A DNA stretch of 64,000 nt, taken from positions 1,693 through 65,692 of the IMG/VR virus record IMGVR_UViG_2904541872_000002. One strand, written 5' to 3'. The translations under genes and the position numbers were made by a program. This document shows positions 236 to 62,536 of the stretch, piece after piece. The notes under the pieces were generated by a model, which worked only from the letters and a program-made list of their open reading frames with translations, had not been told where the DNA came from and made no database searches. The stretch is from a virus (Duplodnaviria > Caudoviricetes). Positions within the stretch are counted from its first letter, which is position 1; every line of letters begins with the position of its first letter.

Positions 236-862
236 CTAGCTCCGCTTGAACCTCTCGGCCGGGATCGCGCCCTTACGCTTTACCTTCACCCAGTCAGGTG
301 ACCGAGACCCAGGCTGATAGGTGCTCAGAACGCGCTTCGCGACCAACCCCTCGAGGTTGAGCGGAATCACAGCCTTCTCGAACACCGTCAGCCCGTCCTC
401 GCCGTCGAAGTGGCCGACTAGCAGCACGTTCGGCAAATCTTTTGTTAGGACCTTGGCCAGCGCCGCCTTGCGCTTCTTAAGAGGCTGGCGCGTGATGTCC
501 ACGCCGCGGTCCACCAAGAGGTCGAAGACACAGTAAACGACCGGCGGGGCGCCCTGGAACCACTTGCGTCGTCTGGCACGGTCTTGCAGCTGGTCGAAGT
601 CGCTGTGTCCCTGTTCGTCCAGCACGCAAACCTCGCCGTCGAAGACGTACGGGCCATCCTTGAGCGCGGAAAGGCCGGCTGCCACTTCGGGGAACCAGGC
701 GGTCGCATTCGCCCCGCCGCGGGTGCGCAGCTGCACATCGAGGTCAACCTCGGCCATCAGCCGGTAGCCGTCGAACTTGATCTCGCAGATCCAGCCTGGC
801 TCGGTCATGTCGACCGGCCGCTCGGTGAGCAGCATCGGGAAGAGCGCTTGGAAGTCGAGCAT
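236..862 (-). CDS. ATP-dependent DNA ligase adenylation domain (no OB domain)
   Basis: Motif I EIKFDGYR, motif III FDGEV, IIIa VFDLL, IV EGLVAKR, V RSPDWVKVK; ends 13 aa after motif V. Confidence 0.9.
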   Translation of the reverse strand: MLDFQALFPMLLTERPVDMTEPGWICEIKFDGYRLMAEVDLDVQLRTRGGANATAWFPEVAAGLSALKDGPYVFDGEVCVLDEQGHSDFDQLQDRARRRKWFQGAPPVVYCVFDLLVDRGVDITRQPLKKRKAALAKVLTKDLPNVLLVGHFDGEDGLTVFEKAVIPLNLEGLVAKRVLSTYQPGSRSPDWVKVKRKGAIPAERFKRS

Positions 863-13600: not shown

Positions 13601-16600
13601 GCCTTTGGCAGGGAAGCCGTCGGCCACCATCTTGCGAACGCGCATCAAGTCCGAGTGGTCGAGCACGAACGGGTCGCTGCGTCCCTTGTACACGGAGAAC
13701 AGCGTGGCGCGGGCCTCGCGCTGATGCGCGCCGAGATCCTCGATGCCCGCTGCATTGCGCCGCGCGAGGTCGCTACGGCCCTCGGTCCATCGCAGATGGT
13801 CGTACAGCAGGCGCTCCTTCGCGCCGGCAATGTTTTCCGGGGTGAGCTCGCTGTACACCGCGCGCACCGCCTGCATCATGCGCACGTAGCGGCGGCGGCC
13901 CGCTGGCGTGTTGTCCTTCGGCTGCGCGGCGAGGCGGTCGTAGATCACTTTCGCCGATGCCGCGGTCACGGGGTTCATGCCGCCGCTGACCAACGCCGTC
14001 CAGTCGGGCTTCCAGATGTTCGCCTTCGTGGCCAGCTCGGCGCCTTCGGCCTCGCTCATCTCGTTGAGGTCGGACACGTTGAGGCCGCGCTCCTTCCAAC
14101 GATCCTTTCGGGCGCCGCCGATCTTCTCGCCGGCATCCTGGATGCTCTCGGCAGGCGCAGCCGCTGGCGTGCGCGGCGGACGCTTTTTCTCGGGCTCCTT
14201 CGCTTCAACGGGTCGGCCCGACGGCAAAGCCGTCGGCTCGGGCGTGGGCGTGGGCGTGGGCGTGGGCGTGGGCTCGGGCTCGGGCTCGGGCGTGGGCGTG
14301 GGCGTGGGCGTGGGCGTGGGCGTGGGCGTGGGCGTGGACGTGGGCGTGGGCGTGGGCGTGGGCGTGGGCGTGGGCGCCGAAGCATCGTCCAACGTCGAGC
14401 TGGGGAACTCACGGGCGGCCTCGAGCAGTAGGTCGATCGGCGCATCCAGGCGGATCGTGCGCACGTCTTCGCCCCGCTCGCGTGCGGCGAGCCATTGGTG
14501 GTGGCCGTCGAGCACATGGCCGTCGCTGGACACCAGAATCGCGCGATCGCCGCCCGTGAACTCGCCAGCCCATTGGACGCGATCCGGACTGAACTCCGCC
14601 TGGGTCGGCTTGAGGCTGGCGGCCGGTACCGTCTCATCCGTGTGCGCAATGCCGCGTGCGCTCATGAAGTTGACCATTGCGCCACGGTGCTCCGCGCGGA
14701 TCTGCGGCATTTCCGACCGCGGCACACCCTTCGTCCCGGAGTCCGCCGCGAAGGTCGACCACTCGCCATCCGCCGCGCGGCCCAGCTGCTTCGCTGCCGG
14801 CAGCGGCTCACGCGCTTGAGGATGCGCTGCCGGCGCGGCCGGCGCCGCGCTCGTGGCGCTCCGCTCCTTCACCACGTAGCGCCGGTTCTCGGGCACCACC
14901 TCGTGCGTGTCGGCCAGGCCGTTCTCGCTGACGAAGGCATCGGCCTTGGCCTGGGACAGGAACCACGCCTTGCCCTCTTCCACTCGGCGCTGCGCCTTCT
15001 CGCGGCGCGCCGAGGGCACGGCCGGTGCCGGTGCCGGTGCCGGTGCCGGTGCCGGTGCCGGTGCCGGTGCGGGTGCTGCTGGCGCGGGCGGCGCCGCGCG
15101 GCGCGCGCGCGCCCGGGCAATGCCGTCTCGCACGCTGGTCGGCGCCGCCGCTGCGTCGACAGCTGCTGCCGGCGCAGCTGGCGCCGCTATGGCTTTCGCT
15201 GGCTCGGCTCGTCCTTGCTCGGCCGGAGCTGCTGCAGCAGCCGGTTGCGCGCCTTGGGCGACATCTGCCGCAGGCGCAACAGCGCCGCGAGCACCTTCTT
15301 CCGGGCCCGTGGCTCCGCGGGCAGCTTGAATGGCATCTGCAATCTCCTGGTCGTTCGCGCCAAGGGCGCGGAGGAATTGTTCATCGGTGACGTTGCGGTC
15401 GCCGAAGTCGGGCACGTCGTCCTCGAGCGCGGCGGCCATGTGCCCTTCGGTCTCACGGTCGAGCGCGTGGAAGTAGTCGTCGTAGAGCGTACGGTCGCGC
15501 TCGTCGAGGTCGGAGTAGTCGAGCACGGGCGGCGCCGCGCGGTTGGCAGCCGTGGCCTCCTCCTGCTCGGCCATCGCGGCAGCGTCGGCTTGGCGCTGGG
15601 CGTCCTGCAGCAGCTGGCCGTGCGCACCGGAATCCACGGCGATCGCGGCGCCGGTGGAGAGCGGGCCGGCAGCCGGGTCGATGCCCATGGCCTGAGACGG
15701 CAGCGGTGCTGCGCGCACAGCTGGCGCGCCAGCTGGTGCCTCGGTGGACGGCGGCGATGGTTGCGGCGCCAGGCCCATCAGGCGCGTCCGCGCCGCGGCG
15801 CGCTGTTCTTCCGGCAGGCGCGCGAGATAGGCGTCGACCTCTGCCTGCCGGCCGACGGTTCCATCGGGGAACGCGACGAGCGTGTCGGGCTGGTAACCGA
15901 GCTGCAGCGGCTCGGCGGCAGGGGCCGCGGCGGACTCGCCGCGCGCGCCCGCGCCGTGCACCAGCGCCGCGCCGCCGCCCATCGCACCGCCGGCCAGCAG
16001 GCCCTGCGCGGCGGCCGCACCGACGCCCTCGCCTACGGGCTTGTCGAGCGCGAGGTTCTGCAGCGCCTGCTCGGCCATCGACTGCGGGACCTCCTCGAGC
16101 ACGCCCTCGGAGAGCACGCCCTCGCCCACCTGGCGCGCCAGCGAGCGCTGCGAGGCATGGCCAGCGCCGCGGATCGAGCCCTGCGCCAGCATGGTGTCGG
16201 CGTCGCCGATGCCGAGGCGCTGCGCGACGCGGCCGCCGGCGGCACCGAACGCGGTGGTGGTCACGCCGCTCGCGGCGGCCAGCGCCGCCTGCTGTGGGGT
16301 CAGCAGCCCGTCCGTGGTCTCCTGGCGGATCTGCTCGGCCTGCGAGCCAGCGCCCAGCACGCCCTCGCCGATCGCACCGGCGATGGCCGGCGCAATCTTC
16401 GCGCCCGTGGCCAGCACGCCCCGCGCCACGCCGGCGCCGCCGAGCATCTGCGGGATCGACTCGCCCACGCTGGTCGCGATCGTGCTCGGGTTCTCCAGCA
16501 TCGCCTGGGCCGTGCCCACGAAGCCGTCGGCCTCGGCCACCTTGCGGTTGGCGGCCTTCTGCGCATCGGAGTACTGGTCCGCGAGGATGTCCTGGGTGTC

Positions 16601-16855
16601 CTTGAAGCGCACGCCAGCGTCCTCGACGGCCTTGCCGGCTCGGCCGCCGGTGAACAGGTCGGCTACACCGACCACGCTCTGCGGCAAGCCCACTGCGCCC
16701 TTCAGCGCGGTGATGCCAACGTCCTTGGCAACGTCGAGCGCGGTGCGTTTCGGCGCCGCGGGCTCGACCTCTTTCGCACCAGCTTTCCACCAGCCGTCAC
16801 CGGCTGGTGCCGACTCCTCGGGCTTGGCGCCCTGCTGCCACCAGTTCTGTTCCAT
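7682..16855 (-). CDS. Giant polyvalent internal virion/ejection protein (ParB-like, LPD5-, LPD1-, LPD3-like, two zincin motifs, ART-PolyVal-like, PLxRFG domain)
   Basis: 3057 aa; LKPTQ...DGHHQW; IQDAGEKIGGARKD; HEWAH; YWTRPTEMFARAFESWV; HEVLGH; FHGT/GFYFT/REFIV; YAPLSRFGRY. Confidence 0.9.
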   Translation of the reverse strand: MEQNWWQQGAKPEESAPAGDGWWKAGAKEVEPAAPKRTALDVAKDVGITALKGAVGLPQSVVGVADLFTGGRAGKAVEDAGVRFKDTQDILADQYSDAQKAANRKVAEADGFVGTAQAMLENPSTIATSVGESIPQMLGGAGVARGVLATGAKIAPAIAGAIGEGVLGAGSQAEQIRQETTDGLLTPQQAALAAASGVTTTAFGAAGGRVAQRLGIGDADTMLAQGSIRGAGHASQRSLARQVGEGVLSEGVLEEVPQSMAEQALQNLALDKPVGEGVGAAAAQGLLAGGAMGGGAALVHGAGARGESAAAPAAEPLQLGYQPDTLVAFPDGTVGRQAEVDAYLARLPEEQRAAARTRLMGLAPQPSPPSTEAPAGAPAVRAAPLPSQAMGIDPAAGPLSTGAAIAVDSGAHGQLLQDAQRQADAAAMAEQEEATAANRAAPPVLDYSDLDERDRTLYDDYFHALDRETEGHMAAALEDDVPDFGDRNVTDEQFLRALGANDQEIADAIQAARGATGPEEGARGAVAPAADVAQGAQPAAAAAPAEQGRAEPAKAIAAPAAPAAAVDAAAAPTSVRDGIARARARRAAPPAPAAPAPAPAPAPAPAPAPAPAVPSARREKAQRRVEEGKAWFLSQAKADAFVSENGLADTHEVVPENRRYVVKERSATSAAPAAPAAHPQAREPLPAAKQLGRAADGEWSTFAADSGTKGVPRSEMPQIRAEHRGAMVNFMSARGIAHTDETVPAASLKPTQAEFSPDRVQWAGEFTGGDRAILVSSDGHVLDGHHQWLAARERGEDVRTIRLDAPIDLLLEAAREFPSSTLDDASAPTPTPTPTPTPTSTPTPTPTPTPTPTPTPEPEPEPTPTPTPTPTPEPTALPSGRPVEAKEPEKKRPPRTPAAAPAESIQDAGEKIGGARKDRWKERGLNVSDLNEMSEAEGAELATKANIWKPDWTALVSGGMNPVTAASAKVIYDRLAAQPKDNTPAGRRRYVRMMQAVRAVYSELTPENIAGAKERLLYDHLRWTEGRSDLARRNAAGIEDLGAHQREARATLFSVYKGRSDPFVLDHSDLMRVRKMVADGFPAKGEPWARRFGVREASGKSLTPRGRELTLEQSAEMGTPLTAEQIAGSYFEVRRQIGGRVLAYAMTREDAEAAARRLYEAELASTTRGQEPERPHLDVLQRAGLPQRLDRDATPDDFIRDFGFRGIEFGNWSAQDERQRIINMAYDGLSDLAQVMGVPPSAMSLNGTMGLAFGARGGGRFAAHYEPGRLVINMTKIRGGGSLAHEWAHALDHYFGELEQADAYQGRARGASGWYTQGSYDGDPQRTGRRGRLENLRPELASAFDRVMSTIYREQVDRAALVRDAELTLERAQARLAGTADEDLKRIYSTGVDSARQNLAKALGLPPDAVRQGRKESSYYESSLGIKEGKESYWTRPTEMFARAFESWVFDRIKAMGARSDYLVHGVESGVQYPAGLERARINQAFDQLATTIETRAGENGNTALFRRGDDGLAGMSPEAANAMRALSRPTYSPQARAQAVATVRKTVDAIRSAWGNAPDIVVAFDMNDAAVPEAARRADLRQRSGGARGAPEGFYYRGKAYLMASRLGTAEDAARVLYHEVLGHHGLRGTFGKQLDGVLNQIATMRRTEVDAKVREYGLRGVNKLDRRAAAEEVLAEMAQNTPELHFVRRAVAAIRTWLRENVAGFRGLRLTDDEIIRNFILPARAFVERSAGAAAPRAGLAFSRAEGTDPDAESRAFLEGAPVAQMTGKEFAPDGVPITEKVTEHYATTGNAQVEVPGIGLVSLDRQSVKSSLFHGIGRDKATAFAAVPDVLKNGKIIHAEAMEGARDAGMVYHVAAPVRISDRDMVEVVLVKADSNAKRMYVHEVVLREKLQQSAFEAGAGAAGAGVQSRADAGAIRSVLDRIYSVNPAEGEPTGTEQTSTPAFRAWFGESKVVDAQGAPLQVFHGTTAEFTAFNDEFLGEGDGNADWGNGFYFTDQKQAAAAYAEGEGGRVMDVYLSLKNPAPLEVVNQVMEQPGAEMDDDYVRQELISRGYDGIIVSHQGGGREFIVFQPGQIKSASGNAGTFDESNPDIMFSRSTVGEYARTAAAELNKSFSAPGRLSWWHKTIGTMYNLAERSPAFKPVFDAAQGFVDDVSHYATDAAELAPKLLPKLETWRDIKKSPISAADNAAVAKPVFEGTLTWARDEQGKPVQVQSLIDAAAGLTSEQKAQRLLRNGMLDERMLKAWQGMPLESYEKAVASRYESRMLQPGVVWSDAELRSMFQLTDDQVALYREFREATNRSLDTMARADMLRFAGDDAKGLRTMVMDAPDAQAAAVLIRDHLAQLAADQPDRSTLLMNTANGIMDRADKVRDLQARGYAPLSRFGRYSVDVVDAKGERQYFGLFETAREANTMAARMRGEFGEGAVSQGTLSEEAFKMFAGVTPETLELFGNALGLSSTGDRAQDQAFQEYLKLTKTNRSAMRRLIHRKGIAGFSEDVGRVLASFIYSNARQTAAGLNMGDLGEAVNAIPKEQGELKDVAVRLAEYVKNPQEEAQAVRGLLFAQYLGGSIASAFVNMTQPAAVTFPWLSQFGGARKAAAALGTAAKNMATKGFEFEPDLAKALKTAEDEGVVAPQEVHQLMAQARGSGSLRAGDGTRLGEARAAGQNALARLSLAWGKVFGAAEQVNRRITFIAAYRVARDRGEADPAAFANRAVKETQFVYSKASKMQWGRGAVGGTLMTFKTYSIAYLELLHRMYTQGGPEGKRAALLALGMLMLMGGSGGLPFAEDAEDVADALAQLLGYNFSAKKARQEVLEAMLPKGIADFLDKGVSGLPGAPLDVSGRLGMGNLIPGTGLLQQKTSHTRDVLEIAGPAGDFASRIFSGALNVAKGNVGAGALEVAPTAVRNAAKGVDMAATGMYRDAKGYKVLETNHLEAALKAIGFQPQSVATIQEANALNQQAKAFYNLRGQEIRAQWAAGIFEKDDAKVRAAREAIADWNAKNPDQPMVIRIPSVLERVRNMQRSKDQRIADTAPRAMRARMQEELARARADAH
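14235..14376. repeat. Hexamer microsatellite (GGGCGT)n with GGGCTC variants, encoding a (PT)n/(PE)n linker
   Basis: About 23 tandem 6-bp units, in frame in the giant protein. Confidence 0.95.
15021..15070. repeat. Hexamer microsatellite (GCCGGT)8 encoding an (AP)n linker
   Basis: Eight perfect 6-bp units. Confidence 0.95.
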
Positions 16856-30270: not shown

Positions 30271-31560
30271 TCAGCCGCGCGGCTTGATGATCGGCACCAC
30301 GGTGTCGAGCACCGTCACGCCGTGGTCGGTGAACTGCACCTCGTCGCCGTGGTCGACCGCGAAGCGGATCTTCGACAGGCCCTGGATGACGCCGATCAGG
30401 ATTTCCAGCTTGTCGCCGTGGTCGTCCTCTTCTTCGCTCCAGAAGAACGGCATGCCGCTGTGCTCCGACGCGGCGAACGCCTGGCCGAGGGCCTGGCCGC
30501 CGAGCAGGATGGCGCGGTCGATGGCGAACTTCGTGGTGAAGCTGGCCGGGACCACCGCTTGGCTCTCGGTCTCCGAGTCGTAGGCCGCGCAGTAGCGGAT
30601 CACGTCGTTGGCGTAGAAGCGGATCGGCTTCGGCATCTTGACCAGCAGGATGCCGTTCCACAGGCCCGCGTCACCGAGGAACAGCGGGTGATCCTTGATG
30701 AGGCGCGCACGCGCCACGGCCGCAGCTTGGAAATTGCGGAAGGCCGGGTCGGTCGCGAAGCCGCTGTACTGCGCCGGCGACAGCAGCATCACCCGGATCG
30801 GGCTGTCGGTGGCGGCCTGGTCGCCGTCGAACTGCACCGGAGGCGGGGGCAGCGCGATCTGGTCGACGTAGGAGCGCACGGCGTCCACGGTGCCCATCTT
30901 CAGCAGGTCGGTCGAAGCGATGTCGACCTCGCCCGCGTTCACGGTGAACTGGTCGATGACGCCGGCCTTGGCCATGAAGTGCCGGTTCTTCGTTGGCGCC
31001 TTCACGGGGTTGACCAGGATCTCGGCGAAGTCGGGGTGCGTCTCGACCGGCACGCGCCATTCGATGTTGTCGTGGAAGCCACGCGCGCCGCCCATGTGAA
31101 CCAGGATGGACTGGTCCAGGTAGTCGTTTGCCTTCTGCTGCGCCAGCGGCCGGCCCACGCGGCGCAGGTCCACCGGGCTGCGGATCTGCGACATGACGTC
31201 GCCCATGTCGATCGGGAAGCGCGCCTGGTTCACGCGCAGCCGGTCTTCGGACAGCTTCACGCCCACGCCCTTGCCCTTGGCGTACTTGCTGCCCATGATC
31301 GGGTAGCCACCGCTCGGGTTGATGAGGTTGAACTTCACCTCGTCCCCGCGGCCCTTGCCCAGGTCCTGCACCTGCACGATGGGCATGTGGTTGCTGGACT
31401 GCTTCTTGATCGTGGCGATCGCGCCCTCGAGCTTCGGCATCTTGCCGACGAGGCGATTGATGGTGGTGTTGCGCTGCTGGCTCACCGCGAAGACGCCAGC
31501 GGCTTGCTGGACCATCGCCTTCGGGTCGCCGTACTGCATCTGCGTTTTGGTTGCGGTCAT
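30271..31560 (-). CDS. Major capsid protein, N4-gp56/DUF4043 type
   Basis: 429 aa; DLGKGRGDEVKFNL, LRVNQARFPID, RAILLGGQAL, DHGVTVLDT. Confidence 0.9.
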   Translation of the reverse strand: MTATKTQMQYGDPKAMVQQAAGVFAVSQQRNTTINRLVGKMPKLEGAIATIKKQSSNHMPIVQVQDLGKGRGDEVKFNLINPSGGYPIMGSKYAKGKGVGVKLSEDRLRVNQARFPIDMGDVMSQIRSPVDLRRVGRPLAQQKANDYLDQSILVHMGGARGFHDNIEWRVPVETHPDFAEILVNPVKAPTKNRHFMAKAGVIDQFTVNAGEVDIASTDLLKMGTVDAVRSYVDQIALPPPPVQFDGDQAATDSPIRVMLLSPAQYSGFATDPAFRNFQAAAVARARLIKDHPLFLGDAGLWNGILLVKMPKPIRFYANDVIRYCAAYDSETESQAVVPASFTTKFAIDRAILLGGQALGQAFAASEHSGMPFFWSEEEDDHGDKLEILIGVIQGLSKIRFAVDHGDEVQFTDHGVTVLDTVVPIIKPRG

Positions 31561-31601: not shown

Positions 31602-32714
31602 TCACAGAGATCGGTTCAGGAACGCATCGATCTGCTCGGCCGTCATGCCGTGCATGGCTTCCACCATCGCTGCGGGCTCCATCGCTGCGAGTCGCTCGTG
31701 CGGCGACAGCGCGTCGGCCTTCCCGCCCGGGATGTCCGAGAGGGAGGCCGGCACGGCCGGCGCCGCCGCGGCGATCGCGGCTTGCGCGGCTGCCTTGTTG
31801 TCGGCTGCCGCGGCTTGGCTCTGTCCAGCAGCCGGTGCCGCCGCGGGTGCGGCGGTGGCCTTCTTGAAATCGTTGAACAGCTCGACCACCTGCTGCGCGC
31901 TGCCCTTCGCCAGCACGTCCTGCAGCGTGGGCCGCAGGTAGCTGGGTTGGCCCGCGATCCACGCCTTCAGCTCGGCGCTCTCCGCCACGGAATCCGCGTC
32001 GGGGTGCGCCTTGTAGATGGCGTCGAGGTGGGCGTCTTGGGCGCTGCGCTGCTGGTGCTGCTGCAGGGGAGCGATCGCCTTGCTGATCCGCTCCTCCACG
32101 CGCTGGTCGACCAGCGTCGCGATGCCCTTGGCCAGCGCCTCCTCGGAGAAGTCGCCGAAGAGAGCCGGGTCCACCCCGCTGGCGATCGCCGCTTGCGCGG
32201 CCGCCACCTGGTTGTCCGTCTTCGTCGGCGCCTGCCCCGCGTCGGCGCGCTGCTGCGCTTGGGCTTGCAACTCGGTGAGCTGCCGCTGCGCCGTCTCCGC
32301 CTGCGCCTTCCAGTGCTGCTCGCCCTCGCGGGCCTGCACCAGCTTCTCGTAGGGGATGGTGTGCTTGCCATCCTTCGCGAGCACGACGGCGTTGGACGCA
32401 TCGGGCTCGGCTGCGGGAGCTGCTGCAGGTGCCGCGGCGGGTGCTGCTGCGGGGGACGGCGCGGGCGAAGCGGCCGGGGCTGCCGCGGGTGCGGGAGCCG
32501 GCGCTGCTGCGCTGCTGTTCGTGTCGGCGCCGCTCGCTGCATCGGATGCGGGAGCGGGTGCGGCTGCAGCAGTGGTGGTCGTGGGCGCGCCACCGTCATC
32601 CAGCCCGAAGCTGGTATCGCCCGATGCCGCGATCTCGAGGAGCTCAGCGGCCTGCTGCGGCGTCAGTGCGCCGTTGATGTCGTTGGTCTGGAAAAAGTCG
32701 TTGGATGTCGTCAT
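31602..32714 (-). CDS. Capsid scaffolding protein
   Basis: 370 aa, Ala/Pro low-complexity, KDGKHTIPYEKL coiled coil, HPDADSV; directly upstream of MCP. Confidence 0.8.
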   Translation of the reverse strand: MTTSNDFFQTNDINGALTPQQAAELLEIAASGDTSFGLDDGGAPTTTTAAAAPAPASDAASGADTNSSAAAPAPAPAAAPAASPAPSPAAAPAAAPAAAPAAEPDASNAVVLAKDGKHTIPYEKLVQAREGEQHWKAQAETAQRQLTELQAQAQQRADAGQAPTKTDNQVAAAQAAIASGVDPALFGDFSEEALAKGIATLVDQRVEERISKAIAPLQQHQQRSAQDAHLDAIYKAHPDADSVAESAELKAWIAGQPSYLRPTLQDVLAKGSAQQVVELFNDFKKATAAPAAAPAAGQSQAAAADNKAAAQAAIAAAAPAVPASLSDIPGGKADALSPHERLAAMEPAAMVEAMHGMTAEQIDAFLNRSL

Positions 32715-32855
32715 GCCTGTCCCACCACATATCGCCGTGGCCGCAAGGGGCCAGCAATCCGGTGCGAGCCCTCAAGGGGCCGCGCCATCTGCCTGGAATC
32801 CACGGTGTTGCCACCGTGACCTCGCCCCAGCGCTCGCGCGCGGTGCTTGAAAGGC

Positions 32856-32897
32856 AGTGTCGAAAGAGCAAAGGCAAAGACGAAACCCTACAGGGGG
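32856..32897 (-). promoter_or_regulatory. Late promoter element copy 5 (scaffold-capsid operon)
   Basis: CCCCCTGTAGGG-TTTCGT-N18-GACACT. Confidence 0.7.
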
Positions 32898-32905
32898 CAG
32901 GAACG

Positions 32906-32930
32906 AAAAAGCCGCCTCGAGGGCGGCTTT
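32906..32930. terminator. Bidirectional intrinsic terminator
   Basis: AAAAA-GCCGCC-TCGAG-GGCGGC-TTT. Confidence 0.8.
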
Positions 32931-32952
32931 GGAAGGGCATCGTCGGCCGCAA

Positions 32953-33969
32953 CTACTCGGGACGCGCGGGCCGAATCTGTCTAGGCTCCCGTGGCCAGGA
33001 CACGCTCACGATTTGCGCGGTTGTGATCTCGCCACGCAGCTCTGTCGCGTTGATCTGCATGTAAAGCGACTTGCGCTCCCACTCCGCGTTCTGCAGCATG
33101 GTCTTGTGCTCATCGCGTAGGGTCTCGGTGCTCAGGTTTGCGATGAATTCGCCGCTGCGCCCACCGCCTCCGACCCACAAGCGAGCAACGCTTTCCTGCT
33201 GCCAATCGATCTTGAAAATCTTGTAGTTGCCGTTCAGCTGGATATCCTTGGCACGCTGCCGCGATGCAGTTGCGATGTTGCGTGCCACGGCGTTTGGCAT
33301 CTCCATCCCATTGACCTCCAAGGTCTTCGCATCGCCAACACTGCGCAAAATTTCTCGACGGCTGTCGTCAAAATCCTCGTGTGCGGCAGCGAGTTTGGGG
33401 CGGCCTGCAAGCGCTTCGGTGACGACTTGAAGGCGCTTCGTTTCTTGTTCGGTCAATGCAACTTGCTTTCTAAACTCAAGGTCAGCGAGCTTTTCCTCAG
33501 CCTTGTTTTTCAGAAACGCTTTCGTGACGACGACACTCCCCGCAACGAACGCAAGTCCAATAATGGTTACGACAAGTTCAGTCGATGTCATTTTTCCCAC
33601 CAATGCAGTAGATAACTTCTCGGCATACTCACCGAGGTTGACTTCGATCAGCGAGCTGCCCCGCTTGACCTTGGCCTTGAACTGAATGTCCTGCTTCTCA
33701 TCTGCTGTCAGCACACGCGCGTTCGTGCTGTTGTGCACATAGCGGGCATAGGATCGGTTGAGAGCATGCTGGATCTGAACCAGCGCTTCTGCCATGTCGG
33801 GGGTGATCGTGCTGTCGTACCCCTCGCCCTTAGACCGGATCGACAGGACTGGCCAGCCGGCGAATTCGATGACCACGTTCTTGTCATCAAATTGGCCCTT
33901 TAAGGCGGATTCCAAGTACCGCGCCGCCTGTTGCTCGTCCTCAACCCGAAGAACACGCTCTCCTGCCAT
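32953..33969 (-). CDS. Low-GC moron protein with one central TM helix, unknown function
   Basis: 338 aa, VKRGSSLIEV, TM ELVVTIIGLAFVAGSVVVT, own terminator. Confidence 0.8.
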   Translation of the reverse strand: MAGERVLRVEDEQQAARYLESALKGQFDDKNVVIEFAGWPVLSIRSKGEGYDSTITPDMAEALVQIQHALNRSYARYVHNSTNARVLTADEKQDIQFKAKVKRGSSLIEVNLGEYAEKLSTALVGKMTSTELVVTIIGLAFVAGSVVVTKAFLKNKAEEKLADLEFRKQVALTEQETKRLQVVTEALAGRPKLAAAHEDFDDSRREILRSVGDAKTLEVNGMEMPNAVARNIATASRQRAKDIQLNGNYKIFKIDWQQESVARLWVGGGGRSGEFIANLSTETLRDEHKTMLQNAEWERKSLYMQINATELRGEITTAQIVSVSWPREPRQIRPARPE

Positions 33970-34053
33970 GCTTGCCCGCCTCGCTCGATGTAATACGAGA
34001 ATGCTACAGCAGGTTACAGAGCACGCCGTTAAGGGTTTCTGGGCACTCCTGCC

Positions 34054-34917
34054 TTAGGCAACCACCACCCAGTCCTCCGCCAGCATGTCGGTTTGCGAGG
34101 CGAGCCAGCCCATGAGGATCTCGCCGTTGGCGGTCTTCATCGTGATGGACGGCAGCACCATGGCTGTGCCGTTCGGCTGCTGCTCGGCCCACTTCCGGTT
34201 CGCCGACGCCCAAAAGCCCGCGGCCGGCACCTCGCGCGAGCCGTCGCAGCTCAGGGCGAGCCACATGTCCTTGCCGTTCCAGCCGAGGCGCGCGACGCGC
34301 TCGCCATGCTTCAGGGCCCGCAGCGCCGCGCCGAAGTCCAGGACCGAGCGCTGCCCGCGCGCAGCAAACACCGCGTCGACCGCTTCTTCGGCCTTGCCCG
34401 GACCTTCGTCCTGGTGATCGTCGCGCACCGGAATGCTGACGACCTTAGGCGCTGCGGCCGACCTGGTCCCGATCAGCGCATCGATCGCTTCGCGCACCTG
34501 CGTGCCGACACGCGCGCCACCGTGCCCCAACTCCGCGACTCGAGCCGCCAGCGAATGCGAGGCCGACAGTTCGAGGTCCTGGCGGTGCGTGCGTGCAATG
34601 GGCGCCGCGGTTGCATCCTGCCGCGCGGCCTGGCCCTTCTGGAACGGCATCCAGGTGCAGAACCACCCGAAGTCGACACGAGCGGGATCGGGTTCCGGCA
34701 AGAGGTCAACGCTGGTGCGACCGTGCGGTGCACCGTTGGCATCGAACACGGTCAGATTGACCAGCACGTCGCTCCACACATGCGTGACGATCGCGGCGTA
34801 GGGCTGATCGGCGCCGGCGGCATGGCGCGCGAAGCCAGCCTCGGCGCCGTTCGCACAGGGATAGAACCAGAGCACGCGGCCGACGGTTGGGGTGATCTGG
34901 GGTTGAGGGGTGTTCAT
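34054..34917 (-). CDS. Fusion: uncharacterised phage N-domain plus C-terminal DUF2829 (Tad2-like) domain
   Basis: Start ATG 34917 after AGGAG; N-domain PTVGRVLWFYP...WMPFQ; C-domain LDFGAALRALKHGERVARLGWNGKDMW...GWLASQTDMLAEDW. Confidence 0.85.
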   Translation of the reverse strand: MNTPQPQITPTVGRVLWFYPCANGAEAGFARHAAGADQPYAAIVTHVWSDVLVNLTVFDANGAPHGRTSVDLLPEPDPARVDFGWFCTWMPFQKGQAARQDATAAPIARTHRQDLELSASHSLAARVAELGHGGARVGTQVREAIDALIGTRSAAAPKVVSIPVRDDHQDEGPGKAEEAVDAVFAARGQRSVLDFGAALRALKHGERVARLGWNGKDMWLALSCDGSREVPAAGFWASANRKWAEQQPNGTAMVLPSITMKTANGEILMGWLASQTDMLAEDWVVVA

Positions 34918-34933
34918 AGGGCTCCTGAAATGG

Positions 34934-35032
34934 AAAAGCCCTGTGGTCTGGCATCCCCGGTAGCGGCCTTCCTCCTCACGGAGGTGGGATGCCAGAGAAC
35001 AGGGCTCTGGGTTGGTTGTCTTGGCCGCTACC
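34934..35032 (-). promoter_or_regulatory. Structured 5' leader: terminator-like hairpin with 10-bp 5'-to-loop pairing
   Basis: Stem 34937-34957 / 34986-35006, T tract, and GGTAGCGGCC (35023-35032) complementary to loop segment 34959-34968. Confidence 0.65.
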
Positions 35033-35046
35033 CGTTGACGAACGCC

Positions 35047-35088
35047 AATGTCGATGCAGGGACGCGACAGCACCATCCCTACAAGGGG
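35047..35088 (-). promoter_or_regulatory. Late promoter element copy 6 (Tad2-fusion leader)
   Basis: CCCCTTGTAGGG-ATGGTG-N18-GACATT. Confidence 0.55.
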
Positions 35089-35107
35089 TCGGTGGAATAA
35101 TTGGTTG

Positions 35108-35782
35108 ATGCCATACGACGATCCGATTTCTACTCCATGGGCCGGCAACCTCGAAGAGGTCAGTCGCCGAATGAATGCGTTCTTCGGAAGCGCCGAAGGA
35201 TTTGAAAGCTATCTAAACGGTCGGTTGCAGGCATTTACGGCAGTCTGGCAGCGAGACTCTCGGGAGGTGGGTGAGGTCCTTCATGCTCACCTCGTAGTCG
35301 AGCACTTTTTGGATGAATATTTGCGGAAAACTCATCCGACTGTTGATTTCGATGTCGTTCGGCCGAAGTACGATGGGAAGCTCAAGTTCGTGCCTGCGTC
35401 GAATCAGCTCCTGATGGAAGCCATGCCGAGCTTCAGGGCGCTAGGCACGATCCGCAATGGGTTGGCTCATCAGATCAATCGTGGGATCGAGAAGGCGGAT
35501 ATTCAGCCGATGCTCAAGTTCGAAAAGTACCGGACTTTTCGCAGTAGCCCGAGTACGCAGGGCCCAATGGATTTCAACTCAGCAAGCCCACACGAGATAT
35601 ACCTCGACTTTGCGAAATGGATTGCGAGCACGCTTCAAACGATGGCTGACCCAGATCATGAAAAAATGAAATTGGTCTTCGACCTTTCTCGCAACATCGA
35701 CGGCACGCCAGCCCCGGCCGTCTCCAATGACGGCGTACCAGGATCGCCGAAGGTAAAACGTCCGATCTTCGGAAGTTTCTGA
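35108..35782 (+). CDS. HEPN-domain protein (MtlR-like HEPN, RxxxxH), antisense moron
   Basis: HLVVEHFL helix and IRNGLAH motif at 35453-35470; low GC; start ATG 35108 (alternative 35048). Confidence 0.75.
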   Translation: MPYDDPISTPWAGNLEEVSRRMNAFFGSAEGFESYLNGRLQAFTAVWQRDSREVGEVLHAHLVVEHFLDEYLRKTHPTVDFDVVRPKYDGKLKFVPASNQLLMEAMPSFRALGTIRNGLAHQINRGIEKADIQPMLKFEKYRTFRSSPSTQGPMDFNSASPHEIYLDFAKWIASTLQTMADPDHEKMKLVFDLSRNIDGTPAPAVSNDGVPGSPKVKRPIFGSF

Positions 35783-35783
35783 T

Positions 35784-38120
35784 CTACACCGGTACGTTGT
35801 CTGACGTGCGCGCGGTCTCGATACCGTCCATGCCCTCGCCGCCGGCGCGCGGCCGCGGCGGGAACGTCGGGCTGCTGTTCTCGCGCACTGGCGGTGCGGC
35901 AGCCGCTTCTTCCTGAGCCGCCGGCGGCACCACCGCGCCACCCTGCCCTTGGATGTACGGGTCCTTGATGTTCATCGCCGCGGTCTGCGCCGGCGTCGGG
36001 AAGTTCGGGTCGTCGCCGCCCGGGCTGGGCCGCGTGTAGCCCGCGCCCTGCATGATCGCGTCGGCGATCGGCGCGATCATCGGCATCTGCGCCACCTGCG
36101 CGCCACCCTGCATCGCTGCGAAGGCCGCCTGCACGCCGGTCTGCACGGCCTGGGCCATCAGCTGCTTGATCTGCGCGTCGGTCAGCCGCTCCTTCATGTC
36201 GAGTTCGCGGGCCTTCAGGTCGTGGCCGGCCATCTTGACCTCCTGCGCCACGCGCTCCTGCACCTGCTTCTCGATCTCCTCGGGCGAGGCCTGCTGACCA
36301 GCGGCGCGCAGCGCCTGCACCAGGTCGCGCTTGAACGGCACGTCCATGAGGCTCGCGAGGAACGGCATGGCCGCCGCCTGGTACTGCGCAGGCAGGCTCT
36401 TGACCGCCTCGCCCATGACGTTGAGCTGCTGCCCGCGGTAGGTGGGGCTGCTCGGCACGTCCTCGAGCCCGACCTTCAGCCGCGTGCGCTGCAGGTCGTT
36501 GCTCAGGTAGGCCACGCCGGTCTTCGGGTCGATCTCGGGCTTGTTGAGGAGGACTGTGCGGTCGGGCGTGATGGCGTCGCCTTCGATGACGATGGTGTGC
36601 GGCTCCTTGCCCATGTCCTCGACGATCATGGCCAACAGCAGCTCGCCCACCTGGGTGCGCGCGGCCTTGAAGTTGTCCATCAGGTGCGCCAGGCCCTGGT
36701 TCGCCTGCTCGACCTGCGTCTCCTCCTGCACGCCGCTGGTGGCCGTGCCGCGGCGGCCCGAGAACGCACCGGCCGCCGCCGGCGCGACGCGCTCGAGCGC
36801 CATGCGCGCGTCGTTGAGCATCTGCAACTGCTGGTCGGTGAGCTGCACGTCGCGCTTCACCTCGAACCGCGCGCCCTGCTGCGCCATTGCCGCGGCGTTG
36901 AGCACGATGTCGGCATTGCGGCGCCCGACCTGGCGGCGCAGTTGCTCGTCGGTCATGTCGACGGCGCCTTTCGTGCGCTCCACCCGGTAGGCGCTCATGC
37001 CCCATGTCATCGTGGCCGTGCCGCTGTTCAGCCGGTCCTGCTGGAAGATCATGCCGCGCACCAGGCCGTAGGGCACGCGCGTGCCGTCCTCCCGGTAGCC
37101 CCAGAACGGCACGTAGGGAAAATGCCGGTGCGTGTACGGGCTGGGCCCGTCGTGTAGGCGGTGCGGCCCGAGCCAGAAGCTGCGGCGCACGCGCGCGATG
37201 ACGGTGTGCTGCGGGCGCACGAGGCCGCGGGCCAGCGAGTAGTTGTGGACCGCGTTCTCCCGGTCGTACTCGACCACGCGGCCATCAGGCGAGCGCAGCA
37301 CCACGGCCTCGGCCCAGCGGCGGTACCAGACCTCGGACACGCACATGTCCTTGCTGACCGGGTCGTACCAGTTGTGCTCGGCCACGGTCCAGCCACGCGC
37401 CGCGTCCCAGGCGCCCGTGGTCAGCCCGGTAGAGCCGCCGCCGTCCAGCGACTCGGGCGAGAGATTCACCCACCAGTTCTGCCCGTGGCGGCCGCACTCG
37501 ATGATCAGGTCCTTGTGCTTCGGGAACACCTTGGCGACGCGGCTCGGCGGCAGCCAGCGCTCGCGGCGCAGGTAGCGCGCGTCGCTCAAGTCGTCCTCCT
37601 TGGCGTAGAAGTCCCAGTGGATCTCGTTGCGGTGCACGGCGCTGCAGCGGTACTGGTACTTGAAGGGGTCCGACTCGCGCGAGACCTCCACCCAGCCGAG
37701 GCCCACGGCCGCCTGCGGTCGGAAGGCCTTCGAGCACGCCTGGTCGGCCTTGGAATGGCGCTCGGCCTCGTTGAGCCGGAAGTTGAGCGCCTCGGCGACG
37801 TCCTGGCCTTCCGGCTGGCCATTCGGCGTCACGCGCCAGTCCGTGCGCACCGTCGCCTCGTAGCCCTGGATGGCCAGCAGCGCCGGCCCAATGAGGTCCT
37901 CCTTCGCTGGCGGGATGCCCAGCTCCTTCTGCGCGCGCAGCAGCTCGGTGTCCAGCTGGTTGCCGTCGGCGTAGTCGAGTTCCTTGTCGGCCACGGAGCG
38001 CCACGGCGGCTGCTGCTCGATCTCATAGATGAACTGGCGGTATTCCTCGAGGGTCAGCGCGCCGTCGGCGTCGATCTCCTCCTCGATGCTCAGGGTGGTG
38101 GTGCTGTTGCTCATGGTCAT
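35784..38120 (-). CDS. Portal protein, P22-like
   Basis: Start ATG 38120; ELDYADGNQL, GLGWVEV, FPYVPFWGYR, YGLVRGMIFQQD, GTATSG; long C-terminal barrel/tail. Confidence 0.9.
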   Translation of the reverse strand: MTMSNSTTTLSIEEEIDADGALTLEEYRQFIYEIEQQPPWRSVADKELDYADGNQLDTELLRAQKELGIPPAKEDLIGPALLAIQGYEATVRTDWRVTPNGQPEGQDVAEALNFRLNEAERHSKADQACSKAFRPQAAVGLGWVEVSRESDPFKYQYRCSAVHRNEIHWDFYAKEDDLSDARYLRRERWLPPSRVAKVFPKHKDLIIECGRHGQNWWVNLSPESLDGGGSTGLTTGAWDAARGWTVAEHNWYDPVSKDMCVSEVWYRRWAEAVVLRSPDGRVVEYDRENAVHNYSLARGLVRPQHTVIARVRRSFWLGPHRLHDGPSPYTHRHFPYVPFWGYREDGTRVPYGLVRGMIFQQDRLNSGTATMTWGMSAYRVERTKGAVDMTDEQLRRQVGRRNADIVLNAAAMAQQGARFEVKRDVQLTDQQLQMLNDARMALERVAPAAAGAFSGRRGTATSGVQEETQVEQANQGLAHLMDNFKAARTQVGELLLAMIVEDMGKEPHTIVIEGDAITPDRTVLLNKPEIDPKTGVAYLSNDLQRTRLKVGLEDVPSSPTYRGQQLNVMGEAVKSLPAQYQAAAMPFLASLMDVPFKRDLVQALRAAGQQASPEEIEKQVQERVAQEVKMAGHDLKARELDMKERLTDAQIKQLMAQAVQTGVQAAFAAMQGGAQVAQMPMIAPIADAIMQGAGYTRPSPGGDDPNFPTPAQTAAMNIKDPYIQGQGGAVVPPAAQEEAAAAPPVRENSSPTFPPRPRAGGEGMDGIETARTSDNVPV

Positions 38121-38130
38121 GGTGGTGCTC

Positions 38131-39882
38131 CTACACGCGCCAGTCGGAGGCCGGGGCCTCGACGTAGGCGGTGTTGTCGGTGAGGTTGGACAGCAGGCCC
38201 AGCTCCTTGGCCTGGGCCCACTGGCGCAGCGCGTCGGCACCCTCGGTGCAGCCGTTGCTCTTGTCGGGCTGGTCGAGATAGCGGCTCTCCGACTGGCTGA
38301 ATTTCTTGCGGTAGCCCTGGATGCGCTCGACACCTTGCTTCGTGGCGTCGAGGTCGAAGAAGGCGCCCTTGATGTGCTTACGCACGGCGTAGATGCCGGC
38401 CATCAGATCGGTGACGCACGGCACGATGAAGAAGGCCTGGCCAGGCAGCAGCTGCTCGAGCTGCTCCTTCGTGCTCCTGTTGTAGTCGCCGAGGCGCTTG
38501 TGGTTCGCGTCGTGCGGCAGGAAGTGGCCGCCGTAGAGGTAGCCGCGGTCCTGGAGGTGCCGCGCGTAGTGGCGCAGGTCCTCGCCGTGCTCCTCGTAGT
38601 AGCCGATGAACCGGTCCTCGCTGCGCAGGATCTGCATGAACCAGATGGCCGTGCCGTCTTTGTTGCCGATGTCCCAGAACGTGAACACGGGCAGGTCGAG
38701 CACCGGCACCTGGCAGATGCCGCCTCGCTTGCGCAGCAACACCATGTCCTTCGCGTAGTAGTGGCCGGCCGTGGACTGCTGGAATGCCTCCTCGGGGGTC
38801 GAGGGGTACTCTTGCCACATGCGCTCCTCTTTGCCCGAGAAGTCATTGCGCAGCTTCTCGACGTACCAGGCGCGCTGGCCCAGGTCGATCTTGGCGTCGA
38901 TCTTCGACTCGAGCTCGTCGAAGTAGTCGTGCTGCTCGGGCGTGATGGACACGCCGGCCGGGTCGATCGAGTAGGTCGGGTCCTGCCACCAGGCGTAGAA
39001 GTGGAAGCGGTACTGGCTGGGCGTCAGCTTGCGCGCGCCGGCCACCAGCGCCTGGGCGCGCTGGCAGATGTCGTAGAACTCGCCCTCGGTGCCTTCGGCC
39101 GTGCTCTCGATGACCAGGATGCCGGACAGCGGCACGGCCTGGAACGAGCCCGTGACGACTTCGTTGGCCTTCGCGGGAAACTTGGCGCAGATCTTCCCGA
39201 ACTCGGAGACGTGCAGCCTGTGGATGGTGCCGCCGCGCACGCTGGTGGCCACGCGGATGCTGCTGTTGTTGTGGCCGAACAGCAGTTCCTTCGTGCTGGC
39301 GCGCGCGAGCGGAAAGCGCTGACGGATCTCCTCGGGCAGGTGGTCGTATGCGAAGACGACCTTGTCGCGGAAGATGGCCTCGGCCGTCTCGCGGTCCTGC
39401 GCGATCATGCCGCAGCGCTGGTTCCCGTTGAACAGCGCGTGGTCGAGCCAGAGGATGGCGACCAGCGTGGTGAAGCCGAGCTGCCGAGCCTTCAGGATGA
39501 CGTTGCGGTGCCAGAGCCTGGTGATGAAGCGCTTCTGCGCGCGGTTCGGCTTGAACGGCATGACGAAGGAATCGCCCTCGTCGATGACCTCGCCCTCCTC
39601 GTTCCTGATCGGCTCGCCCTTGACGATGATCTGGTAGAGGCAGCCGCTGAACAGGCGCCACTGCGGGTCGCGCAAGCAGCGCTCGAGTTCCGCCGCGTCC
39701 GTGGGCAGGAAGTCGGCGTGCTTGGCGATGTGCGGCCCGCGCTTCGGCCGGCGCCGGTTGTCCCAGCGGTGCCCGAGCTGCGCGTCGAGGTCGCGACCAG
39801 GCTCGACCTCAAGCGCGGTGTCGTCCTCGTCAAGCGTGCCCGGGTCGGCGGGGCGCGCCGCAGCCTTAGCCTGGAGCGCCAT
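38131..39882 (-). CDS. Terminase large subunit
   Basis: Walker A LKARQLGFTT, Walker B LHVSEFG, IESTAEG, nuclease WDIG, HFLPHD, ADALR; start ATG 39882. Confidence 0.95.
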   Translation of the reverse strand: MALQAKAAARPADPGTLDEDDTALEVEPGRDLDAQLGHRWDNRRRPKRGPHIAKHADFLPTDAAELERCLRDPQWRLFSGCLYQIIVKGEPIRNEEGEVIDEGDSFVMPFKPNRAQKRFITRLWHRNVILKARQLGFTTLVAILWLDHALFNGNQRCGMIAQDRETAEAIFRDKVVFAYDHLPEEIRQRFPLARASTKELLFGHNNSSIRVATSVRGGTIHRLHVSEFGKICAKFPAKANEVVTGSFQAVPLSGILVIESTAEGTEGEFYDICQRAQALVAGARKLTPSQYRFHFYAWWQDPTYSIDPAGVSITPEQHDYFDELESKIDAKIDLGQRAWYVEKLRNDFSGKEERMWQEYPSTPEEAFQQSTAGHYYAKDMVLLRKRGGICQVPVLDLPVFTFWDIGNKDGTAIWFMQILRSEDRFIGYYEEHGEDLRHYARHLQDRGYLYGGHFLPHDANHKRLGDYNRSTKEQLEQLLPGQAFFIVPCVTDLMAGIYAVRKHIKGAFFDLDATKQGVERIQGYRKKFSQSESRYLDQPDKSNGCTEGADALRQWAQAKELGLLSNLTDNTAYVEAPASDWRV

Positions 39883-40804
39883 CGTCCACGTCCTGGCGCG
39901 GCAGGAGGCTATTCGTGCCGCTGGGAGCCTCGGGCGCCTCCGGGTCGTTGGCCACGGGCCGGAACCCGTTGCCATTGCCATTCGCGATGCTGTGCAGCAG
40001 GGCCGCCAGAGGGTCGGTCTTCTGCTGGTTGTCCTTCTCGTAGAGGCCCAGGTGCTTGAACAGCTTCTCCATGGCCGCGCCCTTGTCGTGCATCGAGATC
40101 TCGATGCCGTACTTGGTCATCTTGGCGCCGGCGTAGAGAGCGAGCGCCCGCGGCGACAGGCGGCGTGTGTCGGCCAGCACGGTGCGCGCGTGGCCATCGC
40201 CGCCGCAGTCCGGGCAGGCCGGGTGCGGCGGCTTGAGCGGGTCGAAGCCGATGCCGCCCTTCTCGTCGAAGTCGGCCGGGCCGCCGCCCTTCACGGCGTG
40301 CTGCTCGCGGTCGTGATTGAACTCGCCGATGGTGCGCTGCCACTTGAAGCCCTCGCCCCAGCAGTGCCGGCAGCAGCCGACCTTCACCTGCACCAGCTCG
40401 CGCGGGTCGGCCAGCATGATGTTCCACGCCTCGGTCACCACGCGGTCCGCGTCGACCTGCGTGCGCTCCTGCTGCGCCTTCCTGGCATCAGCGATCGCGG
40501 CCTGGATGTACGGTTTTGACAGGTTCTCCGAGGCCATCTGCCGCGCGCTGTCGGGGCTGTATCCGGCCCGGACTGCTGCCTGCGTGCCGTTTAGGTCGAC
40601 CAGGTACTCGTCGACGAAGCGCTGCTGCAGGTCGGTAAGGCCGAGCTGGGCCGGATCCGTTGCTGGTCGGCGTGGCTTCTTCGGCTTGGCGGCCGGTGCC
40701 CTCTTGCGCGCAGGCGAGCCCGCGGCCTTCTTGGGGGCTGCGGGCTTGGTGGTGGTCTTCTTCGGTGCGGGCGCCGGCTTCTTGGCCGGCTTGCGTGGTG
40801 CCAT
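39866..40804 (-). CDS. Terminase small subunit with zinc-finger insertion
   Basis: LTDLQQRFVDEYLVDLNGTQAAVRAGYS; CRHCWG...CPDCGGDG; HDKGAAMEKLFKHLG. Confidence 0.9.
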   Translation of the reverse strand: MAPRKPAKKPAPAPKKTTTKPAAPKKAAGSPARKRAPAAKPKKPRRPATDPAQLGLTDLQQRFVDEYLVDLNGTQAAVRAGYSPDSARQMASENLSKPYIQAAIADARKAQQERTQVDADRVVTEAWNIMLADPRELVQVKVGCCRHCWGEGFKWQRTIGEFNHDREQHAVKGGGPADFDEKGGIGFDPLKPPHPACPDCGGDGHARTVLADTRRLSPRALALYAGAKMTKYGIEISMHDKGAAMEKLFKHLGLYEKDNQQKTDPLAALLHSIANGNGNGFRPVANDPEAPEAPSGTNSLLPRQDVDDGAPG

Positions 40805-42821: not shown

Positions 42822-42896
42822 TGGTTGCGGTGGCCCGATGAACGGGCGACCTGTGGGTTATGAGCCCTCTGCGCTACCTGGCTGCGCTACACCGCG
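42822..42896 (-). tRNA. Degenerate initiator-type tRNA-Met(CAT), possibly pseudo-tRNA
   Basis: C1:A72 mismatch, three G-C pairs in anticodon stem, CTCATAA loop, encoded CCA; T-loop only 5 nt (TTCAT), A28:A42 mismatch. Confidence 0.75.
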
Positions 42897-62183: not shown

Positions 62184-62260
62184 TGGCGGAGTGGACGGGA
62201 CTCGAACCCGCGACCCCCGGCGTGACAGGCCGGTATTCTAACCAACTGAACTACCACTCC
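62184..62260 (-). tRNA. tRNA-Asp(GTC), integration target
   Basis: 77-nt canonical cloverleaf GGAGTGGTAG...CTGTCAC...TTCGAG...CCGCCA. Confidence 0.97.
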
Positions 62261-62329
62261 TGGTAGACAACGTTCACTCCTTGCGGAGTCGAGTGTTGAC
62301 GACTCGTGCCTGCTTCACTTGCATGAAAC

Positions 62330-62405
62330 TGGCGACCCTACGGGGATTCGAACCCCGGTAGCCACCGTGAAAGGGTGGTGTCCTAGGCCTCTAGACGATA
62401 GGGTC
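62330..62405 (-). tRNA. tRNA-Glu(TTC)
   Basis: 76-nt cloverleaf, CCACC-CTTTCAC-GGTGG, CCA end. Confidence 0.97.
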
Positions 62406-62460
62406 AAAACCTTAGGAACCGTGCTGCGATCAGCACTTCTTCTCTTCTCGACACTTTTGA

Positions 62461-62536
<76 letters not shown>

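Follow-up and report, generated by a model that had tools for sequence, protein, structure and literature searches.

A phage domain without a name, joined to Tad2 in a prophage protein, recurs in front of several families of immune-signal sponges

Among the phage proteins that act as sponges for immune signals, Tad2, Tad1 and Acb2 are the classical families (PMC13712596); Acb4 (PF13876; 10.1101/2024.12.30.630793), Sequestin (PF21825; 10.1101/2025.07.12.664507) and RyR Tad, as the phage RyR domain is called (10.64898/2026.06.04.730250), belong to the same class. Sponges also occur fused to each other, as in the Acb4-Tad2 protein of Pasteurella phage Pm86 and in Tad2-Sequestin and Sequestin-Acb4 proteins (Tal et al., 10.1101/2025.07.12.664507), or in the Acb4-Sequestin protein gp59 of phage Ab09 (10.64898/2026.06.04.730250). 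Sequestin itself was discovered through a Pfam screen for families of unknown function fused to Tad2 or Acb4 (Tal et al., 10.1101/2025.07.12.664507). The subject of this study is P0001, a protein of 287 residues encoded in a stretch of 64,000 nucleotides (hereafter the window) of the IMG/VR provirus record IMGVR_UViG_2904541872_000002, in which a Tad2 domain is preceded by a domain (the N-domain) that was invisible to such a screen because it has no Pfam model.

The gene is a single open reading frame (ORF) on the minus strand, running from its start at 34917 to its end at 34054, stop codon included, and its full-length homologues (37–76% identity) have the initiator methionine in common with it (alignment A1). 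An earlier note, made from the sequence alone, had described it as Tad2 fused to an uncharacterised domain; that observation and the reading as a Tad2 fusion are confirmed below, while the late promoter and the CBASS and Pycsar targets that the note also considered are not, the latter as far as the Tad2 part is concerned. The elements of the gene are as follows.
34054..34917, minus strand: whole coding sequence (P0001), 287 residues plus stop, with N-domain, linker and Tad2 domain
34618..34917, minus strand: N-terminal domain, residues 1–100 (predicted model, family alignment, phrog_2293)
34348..34617, minus strand: variable linker, residues 101–190 (model and alignment)
34057..34347, minus strand: Tad2/DUF2829 domain, residues 191–287 (Pfam, PDB sequence matches, Foldseek, pocket residues)
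34922..34926, minus strand: Shine-Dalgarno sequence AGGAG, 4 nt 5' of the ATG (read from the sequence)
34930..35009, minus strand: 5' leader with a long GC-rich hairpin and a U-rich tract, directly upstream of the Shine-Dalgarno sequence (folding)

The C-terminal part of P0001 is a bona fide Tad2 domain and a well-preserved new member of the family. The Pfam model PF11195 (Tad2-like), whose curated cut-off is 25 bits, matches residues 194–286 with 78.7 bits (E = 5e-22, profile positions 2–73 of 73), and the PDB sequence matches of this part are SptTad2 (8WJD, 2e-15), HgmTad2/AcrIIA7 (8KBI), SPO1 Tad2 (8SME) and ModTad2 (9EIB). The AlphaFold (AF2) model of the full-length protein has a mean predicted local distance difference test score (pLDDT) of 78.9, with residues 190–287 mostly at 86–96, and the top Foldseek matches of the Tad2 part are 8WJD, 8KBK, 8KBI, 9EIB, 8WJE and 8SMG (E = 7.6e-8 to 1.8e-5, TM-scores by target of 0.65–0.82). 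Model and matches support the Tad2 fold, in which an N-terminal helix leads into an antiparallel sheet that carries an insertion. The Tad2/DUF2829 assignment of the earlier note is thus borne out both by the profile and by the solved structures.

The ligand contacts of solved Tad2 proteins were carried over via HMMER alignments and the residues then verified in translated P0001. These contacts are W25, N26, T65, W73, S76, T78 and D79 in SPO1 Tad2 (10.1101/2023.05.01.538930), and W21, N22, G23, M76, W87, L88, S90, T92 and D93 for glycocyclic ADP-ribose (gcADPR) in HgmTad2 (10.1101/2023.11.15.567273). The gcADPR pocket of P0001 consists of W213, N214, G215, M260, T262, W271, L272, S274, T276 and D277, with all core contacts conserved: the GWNG loop (W213, N214, G215) and the WLASQTD segment (W271, L272, S274, T276, D277) are the same as in the solved proteins, and M260 and T262, which correspond to HgmTad2 M76 and SPO1 T65, match the contacts that are hydrophobic and made to the adenine base. 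The positions that differ (E266, L268, M269 and N264) are peripheral or water-mediated only, the peripheral changes being T82 of HgmTad2 to E266, V84 to L268, and SPO1 H71 or HgmTad2 N85 to M269. On the strength of this homology with intact ligand contacts, the domain very probably works as a signal sponge. It would form the homotetramer typical of the family and sequester the 1''-3' and 1''-2' gcADPR made by TIR proteins in pockets around the GWNG loop and the WLASQTD segment, in which case the Thoeris effector would never be switched on.

Tad2 proteins of the HgmTad2/SptTad2 type have a dual specificity. HgmTad2 has a further pocket, in which the cyclic dinucleotides cGG and cGAMP are bound by R31, P32, D34, L36, K46, S47, F70, T71 and N85 (10.1101/2023.11.15.567273). 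None of these nine residues is kept in P0001, which has S223, C224, G226, R228, G234, F235, V254, L255 and M269 instead, and the suggestion that the Tad2 part might also act against CBASS or Pycsar therefore finds no support in this pocket. The insertion of about 40 residues is strongly conserved within the subfamily to which P0001 belongs (alignment A1), and may therefore hold a different second site.

The N-terminal part is a separate, autonomous phage domain family that has no name, in agreement with the earlier description of a compact domain without known function. Its predicted fold is an SH3/Tudor-like small barrel of five strands (residues 15–19, 40–49, 52–58, 64–73 and 86–89), followed by a helix from residue 91. 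Most of residues 15–89 have pLDDT values above 90 in the full-length model, and when the domain is modelled alone, with 53 stand-alone homologues, the mean pLDDT is 87 and the predicted TM-score (pTM) 0.79. The two domains are not packed on each other in the full-length model (pTM 0.40). Conserved residues are I8, P10, T11, G13, R14, W17, A41, A42, V47, N54, L55, D59, G62, W89, M90, P91, Q93, G95, Q96 and A97, from which the family motifs PTxGR and WMP[YF]QKGQA can be read; the motif PTVGRVLWFYP ... WMPFQ singled out in the earlier note is present and turns out to be the conserved core of a large family. No model in Pfam (even at E ≤ 10), NCBIfam or PADLOC matches the domain, the only PHROGs match is phrog_2293 ("unknown function"), and a search against PDB sequences gave no match outside Tad2. 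Its structure matches in BFVD are uncharacterised viral proteins, and its neighbours in the ESM Atlas are unnamed, mostly viral clusters, together with one cluster consisting to 100% of PF13876.

The family comprises 2510 cluster representatives (among 1.84 billion) at E ≤ 1e-3 and 652 at E ≤ 1e-10, is encoded on at least 529 IMG/VR contigs, and is found in the cultured phages PA8 of Pseudomonas and Sopo of Xanthomonas, the latter with the stand-alone member CAA2393652.1. Proteins consisting of the domain alone (up to 135 residues) make up 63 of the 150 best representatives (about 40%), which suggests that it works without a partner, and stand-alone genes for 90–130 residues are present at 54 of 80 viral loci. 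The domain apparently always takes the N-terminal position, and in stand-alone forms its conserved motif starts 1–2 residues past the initiator methionine. Being small, phage-borne, usually stand-alone and unnamed in function is a trait of the sponge class, and the N-domain fits it. It is present in INPHARED, while Lockin is described as a cog-like hexamer absent from that collection and TadIV-1 as helical. Two candidate identities were tried and rejected by hhalign with the N-domain alignment A2, namely the N-domain (residues 1–93) of gp68 from phage CB1 (probability 1.2%) and the front half of an N4-like gp49-type protein (0.5%). By eye, those two contain a GYLV.Y...SWSP domain in common (L084:1282-1560 for the N-terminal half of CB1 gp68, L088:676-930 for the N4-like gp49-type front), so that the front half of the N4 gp49-type Tad2 and the N-domain of RyR Tad appear to be one family, distinct from the domain of P0001.

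The two domains of P0001 are connected by some 90 residues, modelled as two helices (residues 111–130 and 134–149, pLDDT 63–77) and a disordered stretch (154–178, pLDDT below 50). Searches of this linker against Pfam (E ≤ 10), NCBIfam and PADLOC return no match, and a hidden Sequestin in its helices (residues 100–190) was rejected, with hhalign probabilities of at most 0.1%. A helical linker module, LYPAIR.AM.EL ... FN ... N.LH.AF.SE, is common to N-domain-Tad2 and N-domain-Acb4 fusions; it has no Pfam name and is seen in P0009, P0010 and P0024 (columns ~245–300 of alignment A1) as well as in UniProt A0A640JJP3, an entry listed in Table S3 of the Acb4 paper (10.1101/2024.12.30.630793).

The partners to which the N-domain is fused were counted in three sets of proteins.
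69 close multi-domain relatives: Acb4 (PF13876) 37 (one also with Sequestin), Tad2 23, RyR 1, hairpin 0, other 0, none recognised 8
26 multi-domain ORFs read from viral DNA: Acb4 15, Tad2 6, Sequestin 0, RyR 0, Acb2/Tad1 hairpin 0, other 0, none recognised 5
89 more diverse long forms: Acb4 21, Tad2 4, Sequestin (PF21825) 2, RyR 2, Acb2/Tad1 hairpin 1, weak DUF2158 match 1, none recognised in the rest

A sponge is thus the partner in 61 of the 69 close multi-domain relatives and in 30 of the 89 distant ones, and apart from the one weak DUF2158 match no Pfam partner outside the sponges was seen. All recognised partners except DUF2158 have been shown experimentally to be sponges (10.1101/2024.12.30.630793; 10.1101/2025.07.12.664507; PMC13712596; 10.64898/2026.06.04.730250). 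The argument of the earlier note, that sponge domains are often fused to each other and that the N-domain is therefore a candidate, is much strengthened by this count, and the list of partners which it had proposed as a check links the domain to five sponge families (Tad2, Acb4, Sequestin, RyR Tad and the Acb2/Tad1 hairpin). One protein of 290 residues, P0269, has three modules in the order N-domain, Acb4, Sequestin, and in P0274 the N-domain stands in front of an RyR-Tad domain. Fusions of this kind are listed in supplementary tables published with the Acb4 (10.1101/2024.12.30.630793) and Sequestin (10.1101/2025.07.12.664507) papers; no discussion of the N-domain was found in the text read from these papers, and in a word search of the Acb4 paper "fusion" refers to the SUMO expression tag only.

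The same partners also occur as neighbouring genes. A separate Acb4 gene follows the fused N-domain-Tad2 gene after 36 bp in several viral loci (L004-8, L010 and L015), and in others (L066/68/69 and L070/71) three genes stand in a row, for Acb4, for a stand-alone N-domain (93 residues in L066) and for Tad2. At one and the same slot between portal and scaffold genes, N-domains that are 58–67% identical are joined to C-termini that are not homologous (several Tad2 subtypes or Acb4); since one type of N-domain joins unrelated sponges at the same slot, this indicates that N-domain and sponge modules are swapped as cassettes.

For stand-alone copies, the two nearest genes on each side of 39 stand-alone N-domain genes were tallied. 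The top Pfam families among these neighbours are Head-tail_con (5), P22_portal (1), Portal_Mu (1) and DUF4055 (1), plus terminases, which corresponds to portals of the T7 type (Head-tail_con), the P22 type, the Mu type and DUF4055. At L043, L045, L052, L020, L054, L076, L087 and others, the stand-alone gene lies beside a portal gene or between terminase and portal genes. A Sequestin search of 40 viral records, mostly with stand-alone N-domains, matched two, one of them about 1.1 kb from the N-domain gene, a weak result. The portal and terminase neighbourhood could be a hot spot for accessory genes, or could reflect co-expression with structural proteins or a link with the virion; a published capsid vertex mutation that escapes type IV Thoeris lends the idea of co-expression some basis.

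The reading we favour is that P0001 is a modular anti-immune-signalling protein, in which the Tad2 sponge is joined to a second, independent anti-signalling module, and we consider its chances to be about even. The same balance applies to the N-domain taken by itself, for which the fusion and neighbourhood patterns suggest a role as an anti-defence module. The domain would then most probably bind a different immune signal, or otherwise block a signalling defence, and P0001 would thereby be bifunctional, as in the Acb4-Tad2 and Tad2-Sequestin fusions. It is a distinctly more tentative proposal, drawn from these same patterns, that the N-domain is a ligand sponge specifically, and we would be slightly more doubtful still that the PTxGR/WMP[YF]QKGQA barrel defines another family of phage sponges, with an immune signal as target that the fused domain does not cover. 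Candidate targets would be, for example, His-ADPR, N7-cADPR, the cCMP and cUMP of Pycsar, or the cyclic oligoadenylates of type III CRISPR systems.

Several observations weigh against a second anti-signalling module. A known sponge gene lies within about 1 kb at only ~3 of 39 non-redundant stand-alone loci, and the commonest recognisable neighbours of the stand-alone copies are portal and terminase genes. Foldseek against the PDB, and VIA wide, match the domain to nothing more specific than SH3, Tudor, PWWP and KOW barrels (Z ≤ 5.8). Its monomer is net acidic, with 6 lysines and arginines against 9 aspartates and glutamates, although this does not settle whether it forms the conserved, positively charged pockets that sponges have at protomer interfaces. 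Finally, the N-domain that precedes the sponge domain in gp68 of phage CB1 has no activity on type I Thoeris by itself, and exchanges its strand β1 across the dimer (10.64898/2026.06.04.730250).

The last of these points bears on the strongest alternative, in which Tad2 is the sole active part and the N-domain an accessory assembly module that serves dimerisation, stabilisation or avidity and binds no signal. We regard this as possible, with a smaller chance than that given to a second anti-signalling module. The precedent of gp68 keeps it alive by analogy, the same layout is found in some relatives with an N-domain before RyR-Tad (P0274), the apparently constant N-terminal position with the motif just after the methionine would suit an exchange of strands, and the lack of packing between the two domains in the full-length model is also in its favour. 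However, it is hard to see what a pure assembly module would do in the stand-alone forms that make up about 40% of representatives and occur at 54 of 80 viral loci, and Tad2, Acb4 and Sequestin oligomerise unaided. The negative result for gp68 is also not directly transferable, since its N-domain is not homologous to the one described here, and it was assayed against one defence system only.

Less likely is an unrelated function of the N-domain, for example in nucleic-acid binding or host takeover, its association with sponges then being due only to recombination hot spots common to both. The Tudor/PWWP/KOW/SH3-like fold class commonly binds nucleic acids or peptides, and most stand-alone copies have no sponge as neighbour, both of which would fit. 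Against this, in-frame fusion to five unrelated sponge families, at the frequencies counted above, far exceeds what hot spots would lead one to expect, and the only Pfam partner from outside the sponges is the weak DUF2158 match.

Anti-defence proteins packaged in capsids do exist, for example T4 IPI* and the P1 Dar proteins. A link of the N-domain with head assembly or the virion nevertheless seems very improbable. In this reading the domain would dock to the portal or procapsid, for example, and the fusion would use that address to have the sponge packaged and delivered with the DNA. In its favour, the gene comes next after the portal gene both in the window and in Pseudomonas phage PA8, as it does in many related viral contigs, it lies between terminase and a putative portal in Xanthomonas phage Sopo, and portals of three or four types with terminases lead the neighbours of stand-alone genes. 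On the other side, these lineages do not all have the gene, and its C-terminal partner is freely swapped, as for an accessory gene of a hot spot; the slot in the window also has two low-GC foreign genes. Little signal could be sequestered by a few packaged copies, numerous stand-alone copies lie away from any portal, and the portal matches come partly from one lineage (L043/45/52).

The leader hairpin at 34930-35009 has a minimum free energy of -62.2 kcal/mol (z = -3.98), only one of 200 shuffled sequences being as stable, and from its predicted folding could be a terminator or an attenuator. A scan of 32700-36000 found no sigma-70 promoter sites, and terminator-like sites in this region were not above the expectation from shuffled sequences. 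The P0001 gene is oriented like the late structural genes, but a low-GC gene on the other strand (35048-35782) lies between it and the portal gene. Transcripts from the late operon would have to be antiterminated in order to read through into it. The late promoter predicted in the earlier note thus finds no support in the scan.

The provirus record has a length of 65.7 kb, and the end of the window carries tRNA genes and gltX of the bacterial flank. The phage is temperate, with a P22-type portal. GltX shares 93% identity with its Variovorax boronicumulans counterpart, from which we infer a Variovorax-like betaproteobacterium as the probable host. The P0001 gene is placed in the head module, with the portal gene on one side and a scaffold-like gene on the other.
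30271-31560, head module: major head protein
31602-32714, head module: scaffold-like gene
35784-38333, head module: P22-type portal
38131-39981, head module: terminase large subunit
39866-40804, head module: terminase small subunit
42822-42896, minus strand: tRNA-Met, inside the prophage
62184-62536, minus strand: tRNA-Asp, tRNA-Glu and tRNA-Ala, right border, bacterial flank
62609-64000, minus strand: gltX, right border, bacterial flank

No Acb4 gene, second Tad2 gene or second N-domain gene was found in the 64 kb of the window, and a scan of genome contigs with the whole of P0001 gave two relatives only, in Pararobbsia and Sphingobium. The slot between portal and scaffold also houses the two low-GC foreign genes. 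The gene at 35048-35782 (plus strand, 244 residues), which runs antisense to its two neighbours, the portal gene and the Tad2 fusion, has a GC content of ~53% in surroundings of 67–71%. It has no Pfam or PADLOC match and matches only phrog_5483; an R-N-G-L-A-H stretch in its product fits, by eye, the Rx4-6H motif of HEPN proteins, and homologues lie at the same slot in viral loci L010 and L015. Abortive infection or defence is a possible function for this prophage-borne gene. The other, at 32953-33969 (minus strand, 338 residues, GC 52–57%), encodes a central hydrophobic segment and matches phrog_6191 (unknown function); in close relatives this position is taken by the separate Acb4 gene directly after the N-domain-Tad2 gene, and no homologue was found among 80 related loci. 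Elsewhere in the window, a giant ORF of 3057 residues at 7682-16855 (minus strand), with a coding-like GC content at third codon positions of 0.88, lies in the virion or tail region of the prophage, and an ORF of 208 residues at 236-862 (minus strand), at the left end, resembles ATP-dependent DNA ligases at scores under the NCBIfam cut-offs.

Tad2 being already established, the value of P0001 lies in the partner domain. The N-domain family, which no domain database names, numbers 2500 sequence clusters or more, and of the eight families of sponge described to date it forms in-frame fusions with five. Some of its members are already listed, apparently without comment, in supplements to the Acb4 and Sequestin papers. 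An active N-domain would add to the known anti-signalling families and could serve in the search for new immune signals; an inactive one would point to a general assembly module reused by unrelated sponges. Should it be a sponge, proteins like P0001 would be two-signal inhibitors, and its stand-alone copies would amount to thousands of anti-defence genes that have gone unrecognised.

Compared with known systems, P0001 is closest in its C-terminal half to the long-insertion Tad2 sponges HgmTad2 (AcrIIA7; 8KBI-8KBM, 8WJC) and SptTad2 (8WJD), with which it shares the DUF2829 fold, all gcADPR contacts, nearly identical GWNGK and GWLASQTDMLA.DW segments and a β2–β5 insertion of similar length (~40 residues). 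It differs from them in sharing none of the cGG/cGAMP residues of HgmTad2, and in having some 190 extra N-terminal residues where they are single-domain proteins of about 100. The pocket residues of SPO1 Tad2 (Gp34.65; 8SME/8SMF/8SMG), the founding anti-Thoeris sponge, that are listed above are likewise conserved, whereas that protein has a short insertion, stands alone with 89 residues and is the product of an early-expressed Bacillus phage gene. RyR Tad, represented by gp68 of Pectobacterium phage vB_PatP_CB1, has a matching layout, with a small β-rich N-domain, frequently encoded as an ORF of its own, in front of a sponge domain, and the RyR-Tad domain behind the present type of N-domain in P0274 is 59% identical to the C-domain of gp68, but the N-domain of gp68 itself is of the GYLV.Y...SWSP type. 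Sequestin (PF21825) resembles the N-domain in being fused to Tad2 and Acb4 yet mostly stand-alone, and the N-domain is itself found fused to Sequestin; the two are unlike in structure, a two-helix hairpin dimer as opposed to a predicted β-barrel with a helix, and have no sequence or profile similarity. With the two-sponge fusions, finally, P0001 has in common the small independent modules, the flexible linkers, a partner that is often stand-alone and the exchange of modules between phages, the difference being that both halves of those proteins are proven sponges, whereas the second half of P0001 is a candidate without a named family.

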